From contig CAZEGI010000002.1 of the NCBI GenBank assembly GCA_964512105.1, positions 15,125 to 79,124 on the forward strand: DNA of 64,000 nt, given 5' to 3'. Shown in pieces: positions 3,924 to 52,017 of the stretch; position 1 is the stretch's first letter; each line of letters starts with the position of its first letter. Below the pieces are notes generated by a model. It was not told the DNA's origin, searched no databases, and saw only the letters and a program-made list of their open reading frames with translations. The position numbers and the translations under genes were made by a program. Origin of the DNA: an uncultured archaeon. GTDB taxonomy: Archaea > Altiarchaeota > Altiarchaeia > IMC4 > CAZEGI01.

Positions 3924-4424
3924 ATGAAAATCACGGACATACTAAAAACCGCCATGGTTCTGGAAGAGGACGGCAGGGCGTTCTACCTGAAATGCGCTGA
4001 AAAAACTGAAAACCCGAAAGGTAAAGAGATGTTCTTGTATCTCGCGGGCGAGGAGGAGAGGCACTACAAAAAACTGGGAGGAAAATACAAGGAGCACGCG
4101 GGCAGGGCAGCGAAAATAACAGACAGCGACAGGAAAAATGTGGCGAAAAAAGAGCATGTGCATATACTGAAGAGCGTTTTTGACAGGAAGAAAATAAAGA
4201 TAAAGTCAGATATTCTCGACGCGTTGAACAAGGGCTCAGAGGCTGAACGCAAAAGTATCGAGGTTTACGGAAAATTTGAAAAATCTTCAGACGACGATGC
4301 CCTGAAGAAACTTTTCAGGTGGCTCATAAAGGAGGAGGAAAACCACCTTGCGATTCTCGAAATGGAATATGAGTTCGTTACCGAGACGGGTGAATGGCAC
4401 GATTTCGGTGTTGTAACATCATGA
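3924..4424 (+). CDS. Rubrerythrin/ferritin-like di-iron protein
   Basis: Two ExxH-type motifs (LAGEEERHY ... IKEEENHLAILE) typical of ferritin-like four-helix-bundle proteins. Confidence 0.55.
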   Translation: MKITDILKTAMVLEEDGRAFYLKCAEKTENPKGKEMFLYLAGEEERHYKKLGGKYKEHAGRAAKITDSDRKNVAKKEHVHILKSVFDRKKIKIKSDILDALNKGSEAERKSIEVYGKFEKSSDDDALKKLFRWLIKEEENHLAILEMEYEFVTETGEWHDFGVVTS

Positions 4425-4489
4425 GGTGCAAAAATGGGATGCGGCGGATGCTGCGGACCTGCTAAAAAGAAAAAGAAAAAAGCCTAAGA

Positions 4490-5065
4490 ATGTACTCAAA
4501 GAAGGTGATGGAGCACTTCCAGAATCCAAAGAATAAGGGCAGACTGGAGGATGCAGATGCTATGGGTAAGGTCGGAAACCCAGTGTGCGGCGACATAATG
4601 TACATCTACATAAAGGTCAAAGATGACAGAATCGCTGATATAAGTTTTGAGACTATGGGCTGCGCTGCTGCGATAGCCACAAGCAGCATGATAACGGAAC
4701 TTGCCAAGGGCAAGACGCTGGACGAGGCAATGAAAATCACACGCAATGACGTTGCCGACGCTCTTGATGGTCTGCCGCCCATAAAGATGCACTGCAGCAA
4801 TCTTGCGGCAGACGGGCTGCACAAGGCGATTGAAAACTACCGCTCTGGAATCAAGGAAGGTCCATCAAAGGAAGATGTGTTGAAGGAATTCCAAAAAATT
4901 CCTGGTGTGGACAAAAAAATCGCCAATCTGCTGTGGGACGCAGGTTTTATCGGCATGGACGAAGTCAGGAGAACCAGCAGCATTGAGCTGATGGGCGTGA
5001 AGGGCCTGAATGCAGAACTGATAAAAAAAATCAAGGATTATGTTGGTGGTTCCCATGACCACTGA
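4490..5065 (+). CDS. iscU: IscU/NifU-like Fe-S cluster scaffold fused to a C-terminal helix-hairpin-helix domain
   Basis: N-terminal GNPVCGD ... MGCAAAIATSS ... MHCSNLA IscU motifs. C-terminal KIPGVDKKIANLL / GVKGLNAELIKKI HhH-like repeats. Confidence 0.85.
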   Translation: MYSKKVMEHFQNPKNKGRLEDADAMGKVGNPVCGDIMYIYIKVKDDRIADISFETMGCAAAIATSSMITELAKGKTLDEAMKITRNDVADALDGLPPIKMHCSNLAADGLHKAIENYRSGIKEGPSKEDVLKEFQKIPGVDKKIANLLWDAGFIGMDEVRRTSSIELMGVKGLNAELIKKIKDYVGGSHDH

Positions 5066-6224
5066 AAGGCAGGTATATCTGGACCATGGGGCTACAACTC
5101 CCGTAGACCTCGAAGTTGTAAAGGCGATGTTACCTTATTTTACCGAAAGATTCGGCAATGCGTCAAGTTTGCATACTCCAGGAACTATCGCGAGGGAAGC
5201 GATAGAGAACGCAAGAGGCATTCTCTCAAAGTTCCTTAATTCCAAAGAGGACGAAATCATATTCACATCCAGCGGTACAGAATCCGACAACCTTGCAATA
5301 AAGGGCGCAGCGTTCAAAAACCAGGACAAGGGCAGGCACATAATAACCTCAAGCATAGAGCATCCCGCAGTATTGAAAACATGCGAATTTCTGGAGAAAC
5401 ACGGGTTTGAGGTTACATATCTACCTGTAAGCAGAGACGGTTTCGTTAGCGTTGATGACGTAAAAAAAGCAATAAGGAAAGACACCATACTCATCTCGAT
5501 AATGTACGCAAACAACGAGATAGGAACAATCCAGCCGATAGCAGAAATAGGAAAACTTGCGAGGGAAAAAGGAATCATATTCCACACGGATGCCGTGCAG
5601 GCAGTGGGCAAATTAAAGATTGACGTTGAAAAGGACAATATCGATTTACTTTCACTGTCCGGCCACAAGATTCATGGTCCAAAGGGCGTTGGTGCGTTGT
5701 ACAAAAGAAAGGAAATACAGCTGGAGCCGCTGATGCACGGTGGCGGCCACGAGTTCGGCCTGAGGTCATCAACGGAAAACGTCCCCGGAATTGTCGGTCT
5801 TGGAAAGGCCATAGAGATATGCGGCAAGAACATGAATTCGGAAATCCAGAGAATGACAAAACTGAGGGACAAGCTGATTGACGGCATACTCAGAAATATT
5901 CCTGACACGAGACTTAACGGTTCACGTAAAAATAGGCTTCCAAACAACGCGAACATAACCTTCAGCCATATCGAGGGCGAGTCAATCCTCCTGAGCCTTG
6001 ATGCAAAAGGAATTTCAGTCTCCACAGGATCTGCATGTTCGTCCAAATCGCTGAAGCCATCGCATGTCCTGCTCGCCTTGGGTCTGAAGCCAGAAGAATC
6101 CCACGGGTCGATACGCTTTACACTCGGTCGGTTTACCACTGCAGAAGACATAGACTATGTCCTTGAGACATTGCCAGAAATAGTCAAAAAACTCCGCGAC
6201 CTAAGCCCCTTTGGAAAAAAGTAA
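5055..6224 (+). CDS. iscS: Cysteine desulfurase (IscS/NifS, class V aminotransferase). The alternative ATG at 5040 overlaps iscU.
   Basis: SSLHTPG, SGHKIHGPKGVGALY (PLP-lysine) and the C-terminal active-site STGSACSS motif. Overlaps the iscU stop, consistent with translational coupling. Confidence 0.9.
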   Translation: MTTERQVYLDHGATTPVDLEVVKAMLPYFTERFGNASSLHTPGTIAREAIENARGILSKFLNSKEDEIIFTSSGTESDNLAIKGAAFKNQDKGRHIITSSIEHPAVLKTCEFLEKHGFEVTYLPVSRDGFVSVDDVKKAIRKDTILISIMYANNEIGTIQPIAEIGKLAREKGIIFHTDAVQAVGKLKIDVEKDNIDLLSLSGHKIHGPKGVGALYKRKEIQLEPLMHGGGHEFGLRSSTENVPGIVGLGKAIEICGKNMNSEIQRMTKLRDKLIDGILRNIPDTRLNGSRKNRLPNNANITFSHIEGESILLSLDAKGISVSTGSACSSKSLKPSHVLLALGLKPEESHGSIRFTLGRFTTAEDIDYVLETLPEIVKKLRDLSPFGKK

Positions 6225-10837: not shown

Positions 10838-10840
10838 GGT

Positions 10841-10861
10841 TTGCGGCTGCCGGGATCCGAA
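10841..10861 (-). other. 21-nt fragment identical or near-identical to the 3' end of tRNA-Gly (ttgcggctgccgggatCcgaa versus ttgcggctgccgggatTcgaa in the intact gene). Pseudo-tRNA or att-like remnant.
   Basis: Direct comparison with the intact tRNA at 11019-11093. The T-arm cannot close, so it is not a functional tRNA. Confidence 0.6.
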
Positions 10862-10988
10862 ATAAGGGACTTGCAGTCCCTAATTACGACCAACGGTCGT
10901 AATTTGTCACGAATCTTCGATTCGATAACATATCAACCCTAGGCCACGTCAAGGTCATCGAGCAAACGAAGTTTGCGAAGATGGCCTA

Positions 10989-11018
10989 TGTTTTGATAAA
11001 ACTTTTGTTAAAAGTTTT
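10989..11018. repeat. Palindromic element, copy 1 (tgttttgataaaacttttgttaaaagtttt; 9-bp stem, loop gtt), directly abutting the 3' end of tRNA-Gly. Possible terminator.
   Basis: Perfect inverted repeat aaaactttt/aaaagtttt. Related copies at 11291-11320 and 47918-47945. Confidence 0.7.
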
Positions 11019-11093
11019 TGCGGCTGCCGGGATTCGAACCCGGGTCGCAAGATTGGCAATCTCGAGTGATAGACCAGACTACACTACAGCCGC
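11019..11093 (-). tRNA. tRNA-Gly (anticodon GCC)
   Basis: Reverse complement GCGGCTGTAGTGTAGTCTGGTCTATCACTCGAGATTGCCAATCTTGCGACCCGGGTTCGAATCCCGGCAGCCGCA folds as a cloverleaf. 7-bp acceptor stem, GTTCGAATC T-loop, anticodon loop TTGCCAA. Confidence 0.85.
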
Positions 11094-11164
11094 TTCAACT
11101 TTTTTCATCCACTCCTGCAGCGGAGTTTCACAAGTTTTTGTTTTTTTCTTTTTAGGGTGAAACA

Positions 11165-11227
11165 CTTTTTCTTTTTTTAAAAGAAAAAGGGCTCCTTGAG
11201 TGATAGACCAGACTACACTACAGCCGC
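11165..11227. repeat. Hairpin ctttttctttt-ttt-aaaagaaaaag (11165-11189), followed at 11198-11227 by a 30-nt exact copy of the tRNA-Gly 5' half (gagtgatagaccagactacactacagccgc)
   Basis: Exact 30/30 match to 11064-11093. Confidence 0.75.
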
Positions 11228-11290
11228 ATTTGTCTTTCCCGTTGTATCTGCCGTAGTTGAGGTGCATTAAGCCATTAGCTTAATGCGCCG

Positions 11291-11335
11291 TGTTTTGATC
11301 AACCTTTTGTTAAAAGGTTGCTACACTACAGCCGC
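11291..11335. repeat. Palindromic element, copy 2 (tgttttgatcaaccttttgttaaaaggttg), followed by a 15-nt copy of the tRNA-Gly 5' end (ctacactacagccgc)
   Basis: Inverted repeat caacctttt/aaaaggttg. 15/15 match to 11079-11093 and the same following ttc. Confidence 0.7.
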
Positions 11336-11416
11336 TTCCTTATCCTCGCTGAAGAGAATATATTTTTGTTACTTAACTTAAATATTCAATACAAGAATAC
11401 ATATAGGAAATAAAAA

Positions 11417-47839: not shown

Positions 47840-47892
47840 CTTACGTCTATAGTTTTGTACGGCTGTGTGAACTACTTATCTTGATCTAAGGT

Positions 47893-47945
47893 GTATTCGC
47901 CAGAGCGAATACGCCACTTTTGATAAACCTTTTGGAAAAAGGTTT
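47893..47945. repeat. Two adjacent perfect hairpins in the rfcS-ileS divergent intergenic region: gtattcgc-caga-gcgaatac (47893-47912) and palindromic element copy 3, cttttgataaaccttttggaaaaaggttt (47918-47945)
   Basis: Inverted repeats read directly. The second shares ttttgataaaCCTTTTg..AAAAGGttt with the tRNA-Gly-associated copies. Confidence 0.7.
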
Positions 47946-47982
47946 GGGGAGTTCCATCTTGCGTAGTTATTATCCAAAAATC

Positions 47983-47990
47983 CTTATAAA
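47983..47990 (+). promoter_or_regulatory. TATA-box-like element (cttataaa), ~30 nt upstream of the conserved ileS leader block
   Basis: The AT-rich octamer is at the expected distance from the inferred leader 5' end (~48015). Confidence 0.4.
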
Positions 47991-48015
47991 CTGAGAATAC
48001 ACTTAATTTAACTTT

Positions 48016-48123
48016 AAAATCAGATACTCCACCCTAGTTGCGGAGTATTACTTCCAAACACGCAAATGGGTATCGGAGGTGTAAACGCGAGGTAGATACA
48101 ATTCATATCCTCGCGTGTTTGTA
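48016..48123 (+). promoter_or_regulatory. Conserved structured 5' leader, copy A (upstream of ileS). Hairpin 1 is atactccac...gcggagtat (48024-48048). Hairpin 2 is acgcgagg-16 nt-cctcgcgt (48085-48116). Then gtttgta before the ATG.
   Basis: Near-identical blocks and spacing to 51267-51384. Stems are conserved while loops differ. Confidence 0.6.
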
Positions 48124-51100
48124 ATGAGACCCGCAGGCGAGTACAAACCCAGGGGAATGGAGGAGGGAATCCTCAAATTCTGGAAGGAAAAGGGCATTCC
48201 GGAAAGGACACTGACTGACGGCAAAAAACGCTTCTCCTTTCTGGAGGGGCCGCCAACGCCGAATGCGCCACCTGCACTTCACCATGTTGAAGTCCGCGCC
48301 TTCAAGGACCTTGTGAACCGGTTTAAATTCATGCAGGGTTTCAGTGTTCCGAGAAAGGCAGGATGGGACTGCCACGGGTTGCCTGTGGAAGTGCAGATAG
48401 AGAAGAAACTGAAGCTGAACTCGAAGAAGGAGATTGTAAGTTACGGGATTGACAGGTTCGTGGAGGAGTGCAGAAAAAGCGTCTTCAGCAACATCGAGGA
48501 CTGGAACAAACTCACTGAGAGAATGGCGTACTGGATTGATATGGAAAATCCCTATGTCACCATGCGCAACGAATACATCGAGAGCGTCTGGTGGTCGCTG
48601 AAGGAGATCTGGAAGAAAGGTTTGCTTTACCTGGATCACAAAGTCGTTCCCTACTGCCCGAGATGCGGAACGCCGCTTTCGAGCCACGAGGTTGCACTCG
48701 GATATCAGGAAATTAAAGAAGAAACCGTCATAGTGCGGTTTCAGGCGAAGGATAAGGACTTTTATTTTTTGGCATGGACCACGACGCCGTGGACGTTACT
48801 CTCGAACCTCGCGCTTGCGGTAAACCCGAAGTTGGAATATGCGAAGATAAGGTACAAGGGCGAGAACTACGTGCTCGCAAAGGAGCTTGCTGAAAAGCGA
48901 TTTCCTGATTCGGAAGTTCTCGAAACCTTCATGGGCAGCGAGCTTTTGGGTATCGAGTATCAGCCGTTATTCAGCCATTTTGTAGGAAAACTGGACAAGA
49001 AGGCATGGTTCGTTATAGGAGGCGATTTTGTAACAATCGAGGAGGGGACAGGAATCGTTCACATCGCGCCGGCATTCGGCGAGGACGACTTCAACGCAGG
49101 GAAGAAGAACAACCTGCCCCTAGTCAATCCCATAAGCGAGGACGGCAAGTTTACGGAGCAGATACCGGAACTGAAAGGCATGTTTGCAAAGGATGCGGAC
49201 TCAAGGATTGTGAGCATTCTCGAGGAGCAGGACGCGCTGATAGCGAAGTATCCTTACAAGCACGACTACCCATTCTGCTGGCGCTGTTCATCACCGCTTT
49301 TGTATTATGCAATGAAATCCTGGTTCATAGCCATGGAGAAGCTGAAAAAAAACCTCATCAGCAACAACAACAGGGTCAAGTGGTTCCCGGAGCACATGAA
49401 GAGCGGCAGGTTTGGAGACTGGCTCGAGAACGTCAAGGACTGGTCGCTTTCAAGAAACAGGTTCTGGGGAACGCCGCTTCCGATTTGGATTTGTGAATGT
49501 GGAAACAAGGAAGTTATCGGGTCAAGAAAGGAGCTGACTGAAAAATCCGCGAGTAAGATTGATGCAAACATTGATTTGCACCGACCATATGTGGACAAGG
49601 TAAAGCTCAAATGCAGGTGCGGAAAACTTATGAGCCGGGTGGATTACGTGATTGACTGCTGGTACGATTCCGGTGCAGCAACCTTCGCGCAGTACCATTA
49701 TCCGTTTGAAAATAAGGAATTGTTTGAGAGGAGTTTTCCGTACGATTTCATCTGCGAGGCAACGGACCAGACAAGAGGATGGTTCTACACACTGCTTGCA
49801 ATCTCAACCGTGATTTTCAACAAACCGGCTTACAAGAGCGTTGTTGTTGGCGGTTTGCTGTTGGATGACAAAGGCGAAAAAATGTCCTCAAGCAAGGACA
49901 ACATAATACATCCATGGGATCTTTTCAACACCGTCGGTGCGGACGCCGTGAGGTTGCAGATGTTCGCAACAGCGCCCTGGAACGCAAAGCGATTCGGGAA
50001 GGAAACTTTGGATGAAACAGCAATACCAATGCTGAGAACGCTGTGGAGCTGCTATGAGTTCACGACGCGATACATGCTGCTGGACAGGTTCGAGCCGAGC
50101 AAACACCAACTGGGAGACGCAAAACTCAGGATTGAGGACGAGTGGATTCTGTCAGCTGTTGACGCGCTTGCGGAAAACGTAAACAGGAATCTTGAAAACA
50201 ACGATTACCACCACCTCGTTGCGAACATGAACAATTTCGTCACCGAAGACCTGTCAAGGGGTTACATAAAACTCATACGTGACAGGTTATGGCTCGAGGA
50301 CAAGGGCAGTAAGATGGATGAATCAAAGTTTGCGGCGTATGTAACGCTGTCCGAAGTTTTCAGGAGGTTGTGTACTATTCTTGCACCGGCAGCGCCCTTC
50401 ATTGCAGAAGAGATCTACCAGAATCTGGTTAAAGGCAGGGAGGAGAGCGTGCATTTCCTGAAGTGGCCGAAGCCCGAGCACATCAACCCTGAACTTGGAT
50501 TCCAGATGAACCTTGCAAAAAAGATTTTCGAGGCAGGGAGCAACTGCAGGCAGAACGCTGGAATAAAACTCAGGCACCCTATAAAATCCGTAACCGTGGT
50601 TGGCGACTCGAAAGTCAGAAAAACCGTTGATACTCTCGGAGAAGTGATAAAGAAGCAACTGAACGCCAAGGATGTGAAATTTGTGGATGAGATTCCTGGC
50701 ACAAAGTATATCGGAGTTCCGAATTTCAAGATTCTTGGACCGAAATTCGGTAAGGATGCTGTCCGGGTTGCGGAACTCATACGTGAAAACGGAAAGAAAC
50801 TAAGGGAGCGTAAAAAAATAAATCTGGACGGTTACGAGATAACTCCCGAGATGGTTTCCGATGTGAGGGTTGAAACTCCCGAGGGATATATATCGGCTGC
50901 GTTCGCCCTTGAAAATACCAGCGGAATCGTGTACATAGATGCAGAGCGCGACCCAAGTTTACTGCACGAGGCGCTTGCCCGTGATGTCATAAGAAACGTC
51001 CAGGAGCTCAGGAAAAAATCAAATCTTGAGGAACTTGAGCGCATACACGTCTTTATAACCGATACCGCAATGGTGAGGGAAATGCTGAAGGGCTTCGAGC

Positions 51101-51216
51101 GTGTTGTCCTTGACGAGGTCAGGGCGGACAAAATCGTGCTGGAAAAAAGCGTTAAGGGTGCGGAATTCGAATTCGACGAGGAAACAATAAGCGTCGGCAT
51201 AAAAACCGGTTTTTAA
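48124..51216 (+). CDS. ileS: Isoleucyl-tRNA synthetase (archaeal/eukaryotic type). ATG at 48124; the ORF-track start at 48115 is a GTG inside the leader hairpin.
   Basis: HVEVRAFKDLVNRF-type N-terminus, editing domain, KMSSSKDN (KMSKS-like). 1030 aa. Confidence 0.95.
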   Translation: MRPAGEYKPRGMEEGILKFWKEKGIPERTLTDGKKRFSFLEGPPTPNAPPALHHVEVRAFKDLVNRFKFMQGFSVPRKAGWDCHGLPVEVQIEKKLKLNSKKEIVSYGIDRFVEECRKSVFSNIEDWNKLTERMAYWIDMENPYVTMRNEYIESVWWSLKEIWKKGLLYLDHKVVPYCPRCGTPLSSHEVALGYQEIKEETVIVRFQAKDKDFYFLAWTTTPWTLLSNLALAVNPKLEYAKIRYKGENYVLAKELAEKRFPDSEVLETFMGSELLGIEYQPLFSHFVGKLDKKAWFVIGGDFVTIEEGTGIVHIAPAFGEDDFNAGKKNNLPLVNPISEDGKFTEQIPELKGMFAKDADSRIVSILEEQDALIAKYPYKHDYPFCWRCSSPLLYYAMKSWFIAMEKLKKNLISNNNRVKWFPEHMKSGRFGDWLENVKDWSLSRNRFWGTPLPIWICECGNKEVIGSRKELTEKSASKIDANIDLHRPYVDKVKLKCRCGKLMSRVDYVIDCWYDSGAATFAQYHYPFENKELFERSFPYDFICEATDQTRGWFYTLLAISTVIFNKPAYKSVVVGGLLLDDKGEKMSSSKDNIIHPWDLFNTVGADAVRLQMFATAPWNAKRFGKETLDETAIPMLRTLWSCYEFTTRYMLLDRFEPSKHQLGDAKLRIEDEWILSAVDALAENVNRNLENNDYHHLVANMNNFVTEDLSRGYIKLIRDRLWLEDKGSKMDESKFAAYVTLSEVFRRLCTILAPAAPFIAEEIYQNLVKGREESVHFLKWPKPEHINPELGFQMNLAKKIFEAGSNCRQNAGIKLRHPIKSVTVVGDSKVRKTVDTLGEVIKKQLNAKDVKFVDEIPGTKYIGVPNFKILGPKFGKDAVRVAELIRENGKKLRERKKINLDGYEITPEMVSDVRVETPEGYISAAFALENTSGIVYIDAERDPSLLHEALARDVIRNVQELRKKSNLEELERIHVFITDTAMVREMLKGFERVVLDEVRADKIVLEKSVKGAEFEFDEETISVGIKTGF

Positions 51217-51227
51217 CCCCCAAAACA

Positions 51228-51236
51228 TTTTTATAT
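51228..51236 (+). promoter_or_regulatory. TATA-box-like element (tttttatat), ~30 nt upstream of the rpl21e leader
   Basis: AT-rich box with an upstream A-rich BRE-like caaaaca. Confidence 0.4.
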
Positions 51237-51266
51237 CCTAATACTTAAAGATATTACCTTTGGTTC

Positions 51267-51384
51267 AAAATCAAATACTCCACCCTAAAGGGCGGAGTAT
51301 GACTTACAAACACTAGAATGTACAAAAACCAAAAACAGGGGGGTGGAAACGCGAGGTAGAGGAATGTATCCTCGCGTGTTTGTA
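51267..51384 (+). promoter_or_regulatory. Conserved structured 5' leader, copy B (upstream of the rpl21e-rpoF operon). Hairpin 1 is atactccaccc...gggcggagtat (51275-51300). Hairpin 2 is acgcgagg-13 nt-cctcgcgt (51349-51377). Then gtttgta before the ATG.
   Basis: See copy A. Identical 8-bp stem 2 and identical 7-nt spacer to the start codon. Confidence 0.6.
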
Positions 51385-51666
51385 ATGAAGGGCTCAAAGG
51401 GTTACCGGCGTGGAACGCGGAAACTAATCGTTAAACCGAGGGCGAGAGGCAAGTTCAGCATACGGAAGGAACTGCAAACGTTCGAAGACAACGACAAGGT
51501 TGCGGTAACCATAAACCCCCACTACCAGGCCATCCCAAACCCACGCCTCAGGGGCAAATGTGGCAGGGTGGTCGGTAGGCAGGGTAGGGCATATTTCGTG
51601 GAACTAAAGGACGGCAACAAGCTAAAAAAAGTTCTGATAACACCGGAACATTTAACTTCAGTATAA
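51385..51666 (+). CDS. rpl21e: Ribosomal protein L21e. Start set at MKGSKGYRRGTRKL; the ORF-track upstream extension lies inside the conserved leader.
   Basis: The GYRRGTRKL N-terminal motif is characteristic of L21e. Leader conservation places the start at 51385. Confidence 0.85.
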   Translation: MKGSKGYRRGTRKLIVKPRARGKFSIRKELQTFEDNDKVAVTINPHYQAIPNPRLRGKCGRVVGRQGRAYFVELKDGNKLKKVLITPEHLTSV

Positions 51667-51672
51667 ATCAAA

Positions 51673-52017
51673 ATGGAATCTCTGGGCGGCGGGCCGATAC
51701 CGATGGCCGAGGTCAGGAACATCCTGAACGAAACGAAGAGAAGATACAAGGATGAGGATAAGGAGCCGTTGTACGAACAGAAGCGGGCTCTGGAACACGT
51801 CCAGAAGTTTGTGAGATTAACGGCGGCAGACACAAAAAAGCTGTTCGCCCAACTGAAGGAACTGCCACTGCAGCTTACGGACGAGCAGGCAGTGAAGATT
51901 GCGGACCTTCTGCCGGAAACGGTCGACGACGTGAGGGCGATATTCGCGAAGGAACGCTTTAAATACAAAGAAGACGAAATCAAACAGATAACGGATCTGG
52001 TTGACCAATACCGTTGA
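51673..52017 (+). CDS. rpoF: DNA-directed RNA polymerase subunit Rpo4/F
   Basis: ~110-aa helical (HRDC-like) protein in the conserved rpl21e-rpoF-DUF655 gene order. Confidence 0.6.
   Translation: MESLGGGPIPMAEVRNILNETKRRYKDEDKEPLYEQKRALEHVQKFVRLTAADTKKLFAQLKELPLQLTDEQAVKIADLLPETVDDVRAIFAKERFKYKEDEIKQITDLVDQYR

Follow-up and report, generated by a model that had tools for sequence, protein, structure and literature searches.

A hairpin-forming repeat flush with the start codons of ileS and rpl21e in an altiarchaeote is probably a mobile element carried as a 5' leader

Two Copies of a Repeat Abut the Start Codons of ileS and rpl21e

The DNA analyzed here (the window) is a stretch of 64,000 nucleotides from an uncultured archaeon of the Altiarchaeota (GenBank assembly GCA_964512105.1, contig CAZEGI010000002.1, positions 15,125 to 79,124), and it contains two copies, A and B, of a repeat of ∼105–115 nt, each directly abutting the ATG of a gene. 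The genes located 3' of the copies encode the isoleucyl-tRNA synthetase IleRS (ileS, 48124–51216) and ribosomal protein L21e (rpl21e, 51385–51666), the latter followed by genes for RpoF/Rpb4, a DUF655 protein, a ferredoxin, Alba, and a KH protein. An earlier, sequence-only reading of this DNA had reported five blocks shared in the same order by the two regions, and both regions are real: copies A and B have a mean column identity of 80% in pairwise alignment, and the 20-nt block 1 and the 17-nt block 5 each occur exactly twice in the window, with 0.00 and 0.15 occurrences, respectively, expected from shuffles. Scored with a covariance model, copy A reached 59.6 bits and copy B 72.1 bits, and both are predicted to fold more stably than shuffled sequences (z = −2.85 and −3.51, respectively). 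Searches by blastn-short, a fuzzy regular expression and the covariance model with filters off revealed no third copy in the window.

A TATA-like box lies 21–34 nt 5' of the left junction of the window copies and of copies in relatives (29 and 34 nt for copies A and B), a spacing that fits, without proving, a transcription start just 5' of the first hairpin. Its location, after the TATA-like box and before the start codon, makes transcription of the element as a 5' leader very likely, as the sequence-only reading had also held, with the start itself predicted from spacing. The features of both copies are as follows.

48020..48124, + strand: copy A, running from TCAG to GTAA, with the A of the ileS ATG as its final base; delimited by alignment with copy B and the 15 copies from relatives
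51271..51385, + strand: copy B, running from TCAA to GTAA, with the A of the rpl21e ATG (51385–51387) as its final base; delimited by alignment with copy A and the relatives' copies
47984..47990, + strand: TATA-like box TTATAAA of the putative ileS promoter, 29 nt 5' of the left junction of copy A; read from the sequence, its promoter role predicted from the usual archaeal spacing between box and start
51228..51236, + strand: TATA-like box TTTTTATAT of the putative rpl21e promoter, 34 nt 5' of the left junction of copy B
48024..48048, + strand: hairpin P1 of copy A, ATACTCC-A-C ... G-C-GGAGTAT, with an A·C mismatch at stem position 8; from folds, pair counts and RNAalifold
51275..51300, + strand: hairpin P1 of copy B; from folds, pair counts and RNAalifold
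48052..48063, + strand: 5' strand of helix P2 of copy A, TTCCAAACACGC, predicted partner 48113–48124
48113..48124, + strand: 3' strand of P2 of copy A, GCGTGTTTGTAA, whose last base is that A of the ileS ATG (48124–48126)
51304..51313, + strand: 5' strand of P2 of copy B, TTACAAACAC, predicted partner 51376–51385
51376..51385, + strand: 3' strand of P2 of copy B, GTGTTTGTAA
48066..48095, + strand: predicted upstream open reading frame (ORF) of copy A, MGIGGVNAR and stop, containing the Shine–Dalgarno (SD)-like motif GGAGGTG (48075–48081); its TAG stop lies in the P3 loop
51318..51359, + strand: predicted upstream ORF of copy B, MYKNQKQGGGNAR and stop, with the SD-like motif GGGGGTG at 51339–51345
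48086..48115, + strand: hairpin P3 of copy A, CGCGAGG / CCTCGCG, strands 48086–48092 and 48109–48115
51350..51376, + strand: hairpin P3 of copy B, strands 51350–51356 and 51370–51376

From 5' to 3', the copies share a left junction (A)AA^TCAAC (the caret marks the boundary between flank and element), hairpin P1, a GAC linker, the closing helix P2, and a right junction that is usually GTAA^TG. P2 comprises 10–14 bp with a conserved base TTAC...GTAA, and P1 lies 5' of it, outside the closing helix. In the predicted structure, P2 pairs block 3 (TTACAAACACGC; TTCC/TTAC-AAACAC-GC) with the last 10–12 nt of the element, ending on the A of the ATG, and the final base pair of both window copies involves that A. 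Enclosed by P2 are the short upstream ORF, the SD-like GGAGGTG or GGGGGTG, and P3, which overlaps P2 by 1–3 nt on its 3' strand. P3 is the second hairpin of the sequence-only reading. The spacer “gtttgta,” which that reading placed between this hairpin and the start codon, is paired in P2, a helix it had missed.

Across the family of 17 copies, lengths range from 60 to 201 nt; the interior of P2 is smallest in L038 (a 3-nt loop) and largest in L011a (144 nt). Copies of the window-type subfamily carry there an upstream ORF of 9–32 codons, the SD-like GGAGGTG and P3, and the interiors of some relatives' copies hold extra P1-like hairpins (ATTCCTC-hairpin-AGTATCC). Minimal copies lacking the SD-like motif (L038, L011b) identify P1 plus P2 as the core unit.

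The Repeat Occurs in a Lineage of Related Archaea

A scan of a genome collection for hairpin 1 matched a single contig, from a Candidatus Altiarchaeota metagenome-assembled genome (MAG; L004), and a relaxed hairpin-1 pattern run over metagenome contigs returned 43 loci, eight of which have the whole architecture (L011, L015, L018, L027, L031, L038, L045, and L046). Some 34 of the 43 were set aside as unrelated, being either soil contigs with a palindrome in a coding region (roughly 20) or chance terminator-like hairpins. Profile and covariance-model searches of the relatives' loci added the diverged copies L011b, L011c, L031b, L031c, L031d, and L004b, for a total of 17 copies, two in the window and 15 in L004 and the eight metagenome loci. 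Copies retrieved via P1 alone are unbiased with respect to P2. The palindrome of the soil contigs resembles hairpin 1 (ATACTCCNC...GGAGTATCACTTGG) and is shared, in a conserved coding region unrelated to the element, by ∼15–20 of them (L005, L006, L010, L012, L013, L016, L017, L022, L024–L026, L029, L030, L041, and L042).

A viral scan gave four loci with a P1-like palindrome alone, without flanks or P2 and hence unrelated; blastn against phage and plasmid collections found no match to the element, and neither did the covariance model in 97 kb of other related loci. The impression of the sequence-only reading that no known family was evident held up: Rfam 15 cmscan at the gathering threshold returned only a tRNA for the window, and at E ≤ 5 it returned no family over 47950–51450. 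ARAGORN called no tRNA gene in 47900–51500, where Rfam also gave no tRNA match. Contigs with an identical L21e represent the same strain, and no L21e homologues were found between 69% and 100% identity, the nearest named ones belonging to Candidatus Altiarchaeales. The element is lineage-specific, found in a subgroup of Altiarchaeota or related archaea of the DPANN group.

Base Pairing Is Conserved Across Copies

The sequence-only reading had argued for selection on RNA structure from what it called a covariation pattern in the two window copies, with stems conserved and loops differing. The stems of these two copies are identical in sequence, and covariation emerges only when the relatives' copies are included. 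Because a MAFFT alignment of full-length copies misaligned the variable interior, pairs were counted on a core alignment of 14 copies with the P2 interior replaced by GAAA. In this alignment 88.3% of cells were paired, vs. 76.3% in shuffles; 13 pairs varied on both sides, a number matched by none of 500 shuffles, and sliding the 3' partners by 1–3 columns left just 33–46% paired. RNAalifold, run on the natural, unspliced sequences, independently predicted P1 and P2.

Compensatory changes occur at 10 of the 14 P2 pairs, with compensated variants such as CAGACAC/GTGTCTG (L045, L046), CAAAAATGC/GCATTTTTG (L015), CAAACTCGC/GCGAGTTTG (L027), and CCAAGTCGGCA/TGCCGACTTGG, and the P2 sequences of L038 and L004a differ markedly from those of the other copies. 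P1 likewise has fully compensated variants (ATACTGCGGCC/GGCCGCAGTAT, ATAATGCAGGC/GCCCGCATTAT, and ACCCCC/GGGGGT), and compensation was seen in the P1 variants that the covariance model added (L004b, L011c, and L031c). Support for P3 is modest, with one compensated position (GCGAGG/CCTCGC to GCAAGG/CCTTGC in L027 and L031). Mismatches within helices are mostly A·C on the sense strand, equivalent to G·U on the antisense strand. At P1 stem position 8, for example, an A·C is found in copies A and B, L015, L004a, L031b, and L011c and an A-U in seven others; the A·C persists even in variants whose stems are otherwise compensated, and on the opposite strand it corresponds to the common G·U/A-U alternation. 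Taken together, the comparison of copies supports a structured element under selection for pairing.

Occupied and Empty Sites

Insertion polymorphism is observed at several orthologous sites. Other Altiarchaeales have 27–105 nt without the element upstream of rpl21e (L052, L055, L058/L059), and the gap between the RFC gene and ileS is 71 nt, also without it, in L055. At rpl21e, the promoter sequence TAATACCTACTAATTATTCCTTTGCGTTTAGGATTCACC^ATGAAAGG of L058/L059 is collinear up to the insertion point with TAATACTTAAAGATATTACCTTTGGTTCAAAATCAA^element^ATGAAGGG of the window; the region following the window's TATA-like box is collinear with the promoter of this element-free orthologue. Filled and empty pairs were also sought among HisD homologues, the best of which were 62–65% identical and supplied empty junctions: L045 carries the element in its hisD-hisB junction, whereas the junction of L060 (TAAAATG; GAGAAATAAAATGG) is empty, and hisD and hisB of relatives lie 2–12 nt apart. 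In L045 (2197–2236, minus strand) the HisD ORF reads 11 codons into P1 (…KVRLKSTYSTLKGGV and stop), and the C-terminus of HisD has been altered by the insertion. A different palindromic insert (AAAAGTAAGATTTTCTTACTTTT ... AGTAAGAAAATCTTACTTTTT) occupies the same junction in L062 (11290–11378), and this junction seems to collect small hairpin repeats.

One of the 17 copies is intragenic: L004b (4986–5100) lies in frame within an ORF for an RsmB/F methyltransferase (4212–5234) and adds ∼39 residues, the query having 59 residues where the structure PDB 1ixk has 20. Tandem (L011b-L011a), truncated (L031d) and nested copies are also present. Nearly all copies are flanked on both sides by AA/AAT, and TCAAC/TCAAG is repeated on the right of three copies lacking the SD-like motif (L011c, L031b, and L004b). 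The constant left junction AA^TCAAC and the right junction AA^T(G/C)A may reflect a target that is fixed, a duplication of short length, or an att-like core. By eye, the ORFs of L031 and L011 resemble ordinary cellular genes. Within the window, the rpl21e-rpoF junction (51664–51675, TAAATCAAAATG) resembles the left flank (AAATCAA) plus a start codon and looks like an unoccupied target-like site.

Position, Orientation, and Association With Translation Signals

The copies are non-randomly placed. A downstream or host gene could be identified for 16 copies; every one of these runs in the sense direction of its gene, and seven are exactly flush with the ATG of a real gene. Flush placement was confined to copies containing the SD-like motif (seven of nine, vs. 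none of the seven SD-less copies; Fisher p = 0.003), and all nine of these copies have an upstream ORF, which begins at the P2 5' strand or 2–5 nt after it and ends either with a TAG in the P3 loop (six copies) or with the TAA of TAATG (three copies). The L031c and L045 copies occupy operon junctions, the former between the stop codon of an arsC-like gene and the start of a DedA gene. The sequence-only reading had proposed that copies scattered over many unrelated sites would indicate a MITE (short for miniature inverted-repeat transposable element); such a scatter is in substance what we found, although placement is not random with respect to gene and strand.

Downstream genes other than ileS and rpl21e encode an ALS-like TPP enzyme, two GT2 glycosyltransferases, a nitroreductase, a VTT/DedA protein, IGPD (hisB), a DUF5698/DUF2179 protein, an Hsp20-domain protein and a low-molecular-weight phosphatase, in addition to the RsmB/F methyltransferase gene that hosts the intragenic copy. 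The link to the translation apparatus drawn by the sequence-only reading is therefore not supported, with unrelated genes downstream and no element in front of rpl21e or ileS in other Altiarchaeales.

Most genes in the window lack an SD and have a TATA-like box ∼25–30 nt before the ATG, the pattern of leaderless genes. A few operon-internal genes have GAGGT, AGGTG, or GAGGAG 4–6 nt before the ATG, and the anti-SD thus appears to be in use. In copies containing the SD-like motif, its distance to the AUG is 12–14 nt when looped-out hairpins are omitted. In predicted ensembles, positions −12 to −1 have an unpaired probability of 0.01–0.16 in eight of nine copies (0.12 in copy A and 0.01 in copy B). 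Members of the SD and upstream-ORF subfamily lie nearly always flush with start codons, and they do so in a mostly leaderless-looking genome, which suggests that this subfamily supplies or gates translation initiation.

Probably a Mobile Repeat That Brings Its Own Ribosome-Binding Signals

We assign a probability of about 0.65 to the following reading: the element is a lineage-specific, multi-copy, non-autonomous mobile repeat that resides at the fronts of genes, is co-transcribed with them as a leader, and probably brings its own ribosome-binding signals. As the empty sites show, the element has inserted, exactly at ...AA^TG... and with its terminal A rebuilding the start codon; it would then be transcribed from the promoter of the host gene as a 5' leader, or as an intercistronic spacer in operons. 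Insertion into a leaderless gene would be expected to abolish initiation dependent on the 5' end, for which the element might compensate with an SD-like motif placed 12–14 nt from the AUG, the P3 hairpin not counted. Because P2 pairs the 12 nt before the AUG, initiation at the main start probably requires P2 to open, most likely by a ribosome on the upstream ORF, whose AUG lies 2–5 nt after the P2 5' strand. P1 may be a recognition hairpin for the mobilizing agent or a stabilizing hairpin at the 5' end of the RNA. One subfamily may have acquired the SD-like motif and upstream ORF, or kept them under selection, such that the downstream gene stays translatable.

Several observations weigh against this interpretation. 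With regard to mobility, the two ends, TCAAC-ATAC... and ...TTTGTAA, do not form terminal inverted repeats (P2 is an inverted repeat but an internal one), the AA/AAT or TCAAC direct repeat at the flanks is ambiguous, and no transposase, recombinase or full-length parent was seen in ∼130 kb of element-bearing sequence. The pattern that retrieved most copies fixed the sequence of the P1 stem, which makes the sample a biased one. With regard to translation, the SD-like motif is itself partly paired in predicted ensembles (unpaired probability 0.23–0.68) and, measured along the primary sequence, is 40–190 nt away from the AUG; the peptides encoded by the upstream ORFs show no conservation at the protein level, and their AUG lacks an SD of its own. 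Leader status is predicted from box-to-junction spacing, and the excess of A·C mismatches might hint that pairing is selected on the other strand or in single-stranded DNA and not in the mRNA.

The competitor we take most seriously, while thinking it unlikely, is a purely selfish small mobile repeat whose hairpins are kept for a mobilizing enzyme, possibly as single-stranded DNA in the manner of IS200/IS605 ends and REPs. The SD-like motif, upstream ORF and start-codon position would then be by-products of target preference, given that AA^TG resembles the element's own AA^TC junction, with purifying selection removing all other insertions from a compact genome. Such an element would account for the empty sites, the in-frame intragenic copy, the tandem and truncated copies, the constant left flank (A)AA^TCAAC with TCAAC/TCAAG on the right of three SD-less copies, and the P1-plus-P2 core left in the minimal ones, and a hairpin formed in DNA or on the bottom strand would fit the sense-strand excess of A·C over G·U. 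What it accommodates poorly is the tie between the SD/upstream-ORF subfamily and a flush ATG, and the constant geometry from SD-like motif to AUG despite different interiors, both of which would be difficult to explain had selection not acted on translation. In addition, essential genes (ileS and the rpl21e operon) must be expressed through the insert.

A bolder version of the preferred reading, which we hold more doubtful still, would make the element a mobile translation-initiation cassette that inserts site-specifically at AA^TG, gives a leader to genes that had none, and brings them under one shared post-transcriptional control. The helix masking the start would in that case be opened by translation of the upstream ORF or by a factor binding the invariant base of P1, and the result would be a transposable riboregulator building a regulon in an archaeon.

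Far less probable is a cis-regulatory leader dedicated to particular genes, one that would co-regulate translation genes as a riboswitch-like or T-box-like RNA or by binding a ribosomal protein or an aminoacyl-tRNA synthetase. It would explain why RNA structure is conserved and why both window copies precede translation genes, and ileS, the ALS-like enzyme and hisB recall the T-box regulons of bacteria. The downstream genes are functionally heterogeneous, however, orthologous genes of other Altiarchaeales lack the element, and one copy is intragenic; moreover, the region where a ligand pocket or specifier would be expected is the most variable part of the element, reduced to a 3-nt loop in L038, and no Rfam family matched at E ≤ 5. 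Of the sequence-only proposal of a cis-regulatory RNA, then, the structured element under pairing selection survives, and the gene-specific riboswitch or autoregulatory leader does not fit its distribution or the intragenic copy.

We give a shade less credence again to a stand-alone small RNA gene or antisense RNA, or to P1 as a palindromic DNA operator for a transcription factor. P1 does coincide with the predicted transcription start, a frequent binding place of archaeal repressors, and the A·C mismatches would be G·U in an antisense transcript. Against a dimeric operator, P1 variants keep pairing and not sequence, and the loop varies in length; against a separate RNA gene, the sole upstream TATA-like box is the host gene's own, collinear with that of an element-free orthologue, and operon-internal and intragenic copies have no promoter. 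The least credible alternative is an integron-type attC recombination site between gene cassettes: a structured site with conserved pairing, located between genes just upstream of the next ORF and in one orientation, would look similar, but the flanking genes are syntenic core genes (RFC-ileS-rpl21e-rpoF-DUF655), inspection found no RYYYAAC/GTTRRRY cores, P1 lies outside the closing helix, and no integrase was seen in the examined loci.

Some narrower possibilities were rejected on structural grounds. There is no G·A tandem in the register required of a kink-turn (K-turn)/L7Ae site, no ACA or box motif (and a continuous 3' strand) for an H/ACA or C/D small RNA, no bulge in P2 for a bulge-helix-bulge (BHB) intron, and no ARAGORN tRNA for tRNA-like punctuation. 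An N-terminal extension starting from the SD-like motif is interrupted by a stop codon in copy A, and an internal promoter, from which the upstream ORF or the gene would be transcribed without a leader, lacks a TATA-like box at the right distance.

Comparison With Known Elements

By the criteria applied to classical MITEs, the repeat is small and multi-copy, has no transposase inside (the interiors are hairpins and an ORF of 9–32 codons), and is polymorphic for presence at orthologous sites (rpl21e, ileS, hisD-hisB, and the ∼39-residue insert); terminal inverted repeats are absent. By analogy, it resembles MITEs and the Rickettsia palindromic elements (RPEs), the latter being, like it, hairpin-forming multi-copy repeats of ∼100–150 bp that are tolerated in frame within genes (PMC10969869). 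It differs from RPEs in its archaeal host, the location of most copies 5' of genes and flush with the ATG, and its SD/upstream-ORF subfamily, and the likeness is functional, with no sequence relation expected. Correia and ERIC/RU elements fold into long RNA hairpins and alter the expression or stability of downstream mRNA. Such transcribed MITEs (Neisseria Correia, ERIC/RU) are, like the present element, non-autonomous and co-transcribed with neighboring genes (PMC10969869). They have terminal inverted repeats, a TA or other target duplication, and both orientations, whereas this family has asymmetric ends, one orientation, and a precise junction with the start codon.

The mycobacterial interspersed repetitive units (MIRUs) are reportedly orientation-specific intercistronic repeats with small ORFs that overlap the flanking stop and start codons, suggesting translational coupling. 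Three of our copies are MIRU-like in that the upstream-ORF stop overlaps the main start (TAATG), as is the location of L031c and L045 at operon junctions. MIRUs, however, are tandem minisatellite-like units without P1 or P2, and most upstream ORFs here end earlier, in the P3 loop. Like the IS200/IS605-derived PATEs and like REPs, the element has no terminal inverted repeats, has subterminal hairpins whose pairing is maintained, carries an unvarying short sequence on one flank, and is strand-specific. No Y1 transposase, TnpB or RAYT was noticed in the examined loci, and the likeness is a lead on mobilization and not a sign of membership.

Initiation bridged or gated by structure is known from the hairpin between SD and AUG of phage T4 gene 38 and from the region of ermC controlled by a leader peptide. 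In the element, similarly, a hairpin between SD-like motif and AUG would shorten the effective spacing and a short leader ORF would remodel the helix masking the start. T4 gene 38 and ermC are single-gene devices, whereas here the arrangement is part of a dispersed repeat in a mostly leaderless-looking archaeon, with neither a stalling signal nor a ligand apparent.

Little is known of small mobile repeats in archaea, and this family is new to Rfam. A review of MITEs names archaeal elements only for Sulfolobus, Halobacterium, Haloquadratum, Desulfurococcus, and a few others, and none like this for Altiarchaeota (PMC10969869). The element is unusual in pairing a base-exact start-codon junction with a built-in SD-like motif and upstream ORF in a mostly leaderless-looking genome. 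If the leader role is true, it offers a natural experiment in which genes have been switched between leaderless and SD-led initiation, and would show a selfish element rendering its own insertion harmless.

Annotation Hazards and Other Features of the Window

The repeat is a hazard for annotation of Altiarchaeota and DPANN MAGs, through GTG starts in P2, the spurious HisD C-terminus, and peptides inserted into proteins. Mechanical ORF calling picks GTG starts within both window copies, at 48115 (in the P2 3' strand) and at 51343 (in the SD-like motif). No stop codon interrupts the frame between GTG 51343 of copy B and the real ATG, and gene callers could add a false N-terminal extension.

Elsewhere in the window, at 10840–11340, an intact tRNA-Gly(GCC) gene (11019–11093, − strand) lies beside near-identical tRNA fragments, one resembling a 3' end/T-arm (10840–10861) and two a 5' acceptor/D-arm (11195–11227, 97% identical, and 11321–11338). 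ARAGORN and Rfam each call one tRNA only in this region, and the fragments could be split tRNA genes or decayed duplicates. A 29-nt hairpin motif, TGTTTTGATAAAACTTTTGTTAAAAGTTT, flanks the tRNA region twice (10989–11017 and 11291–11319) and recurs in the RFC-ileS intergenic region (47889–47944), next to the GC hairpin GGTGTATTCGCCAGAGCGAATACGCC.

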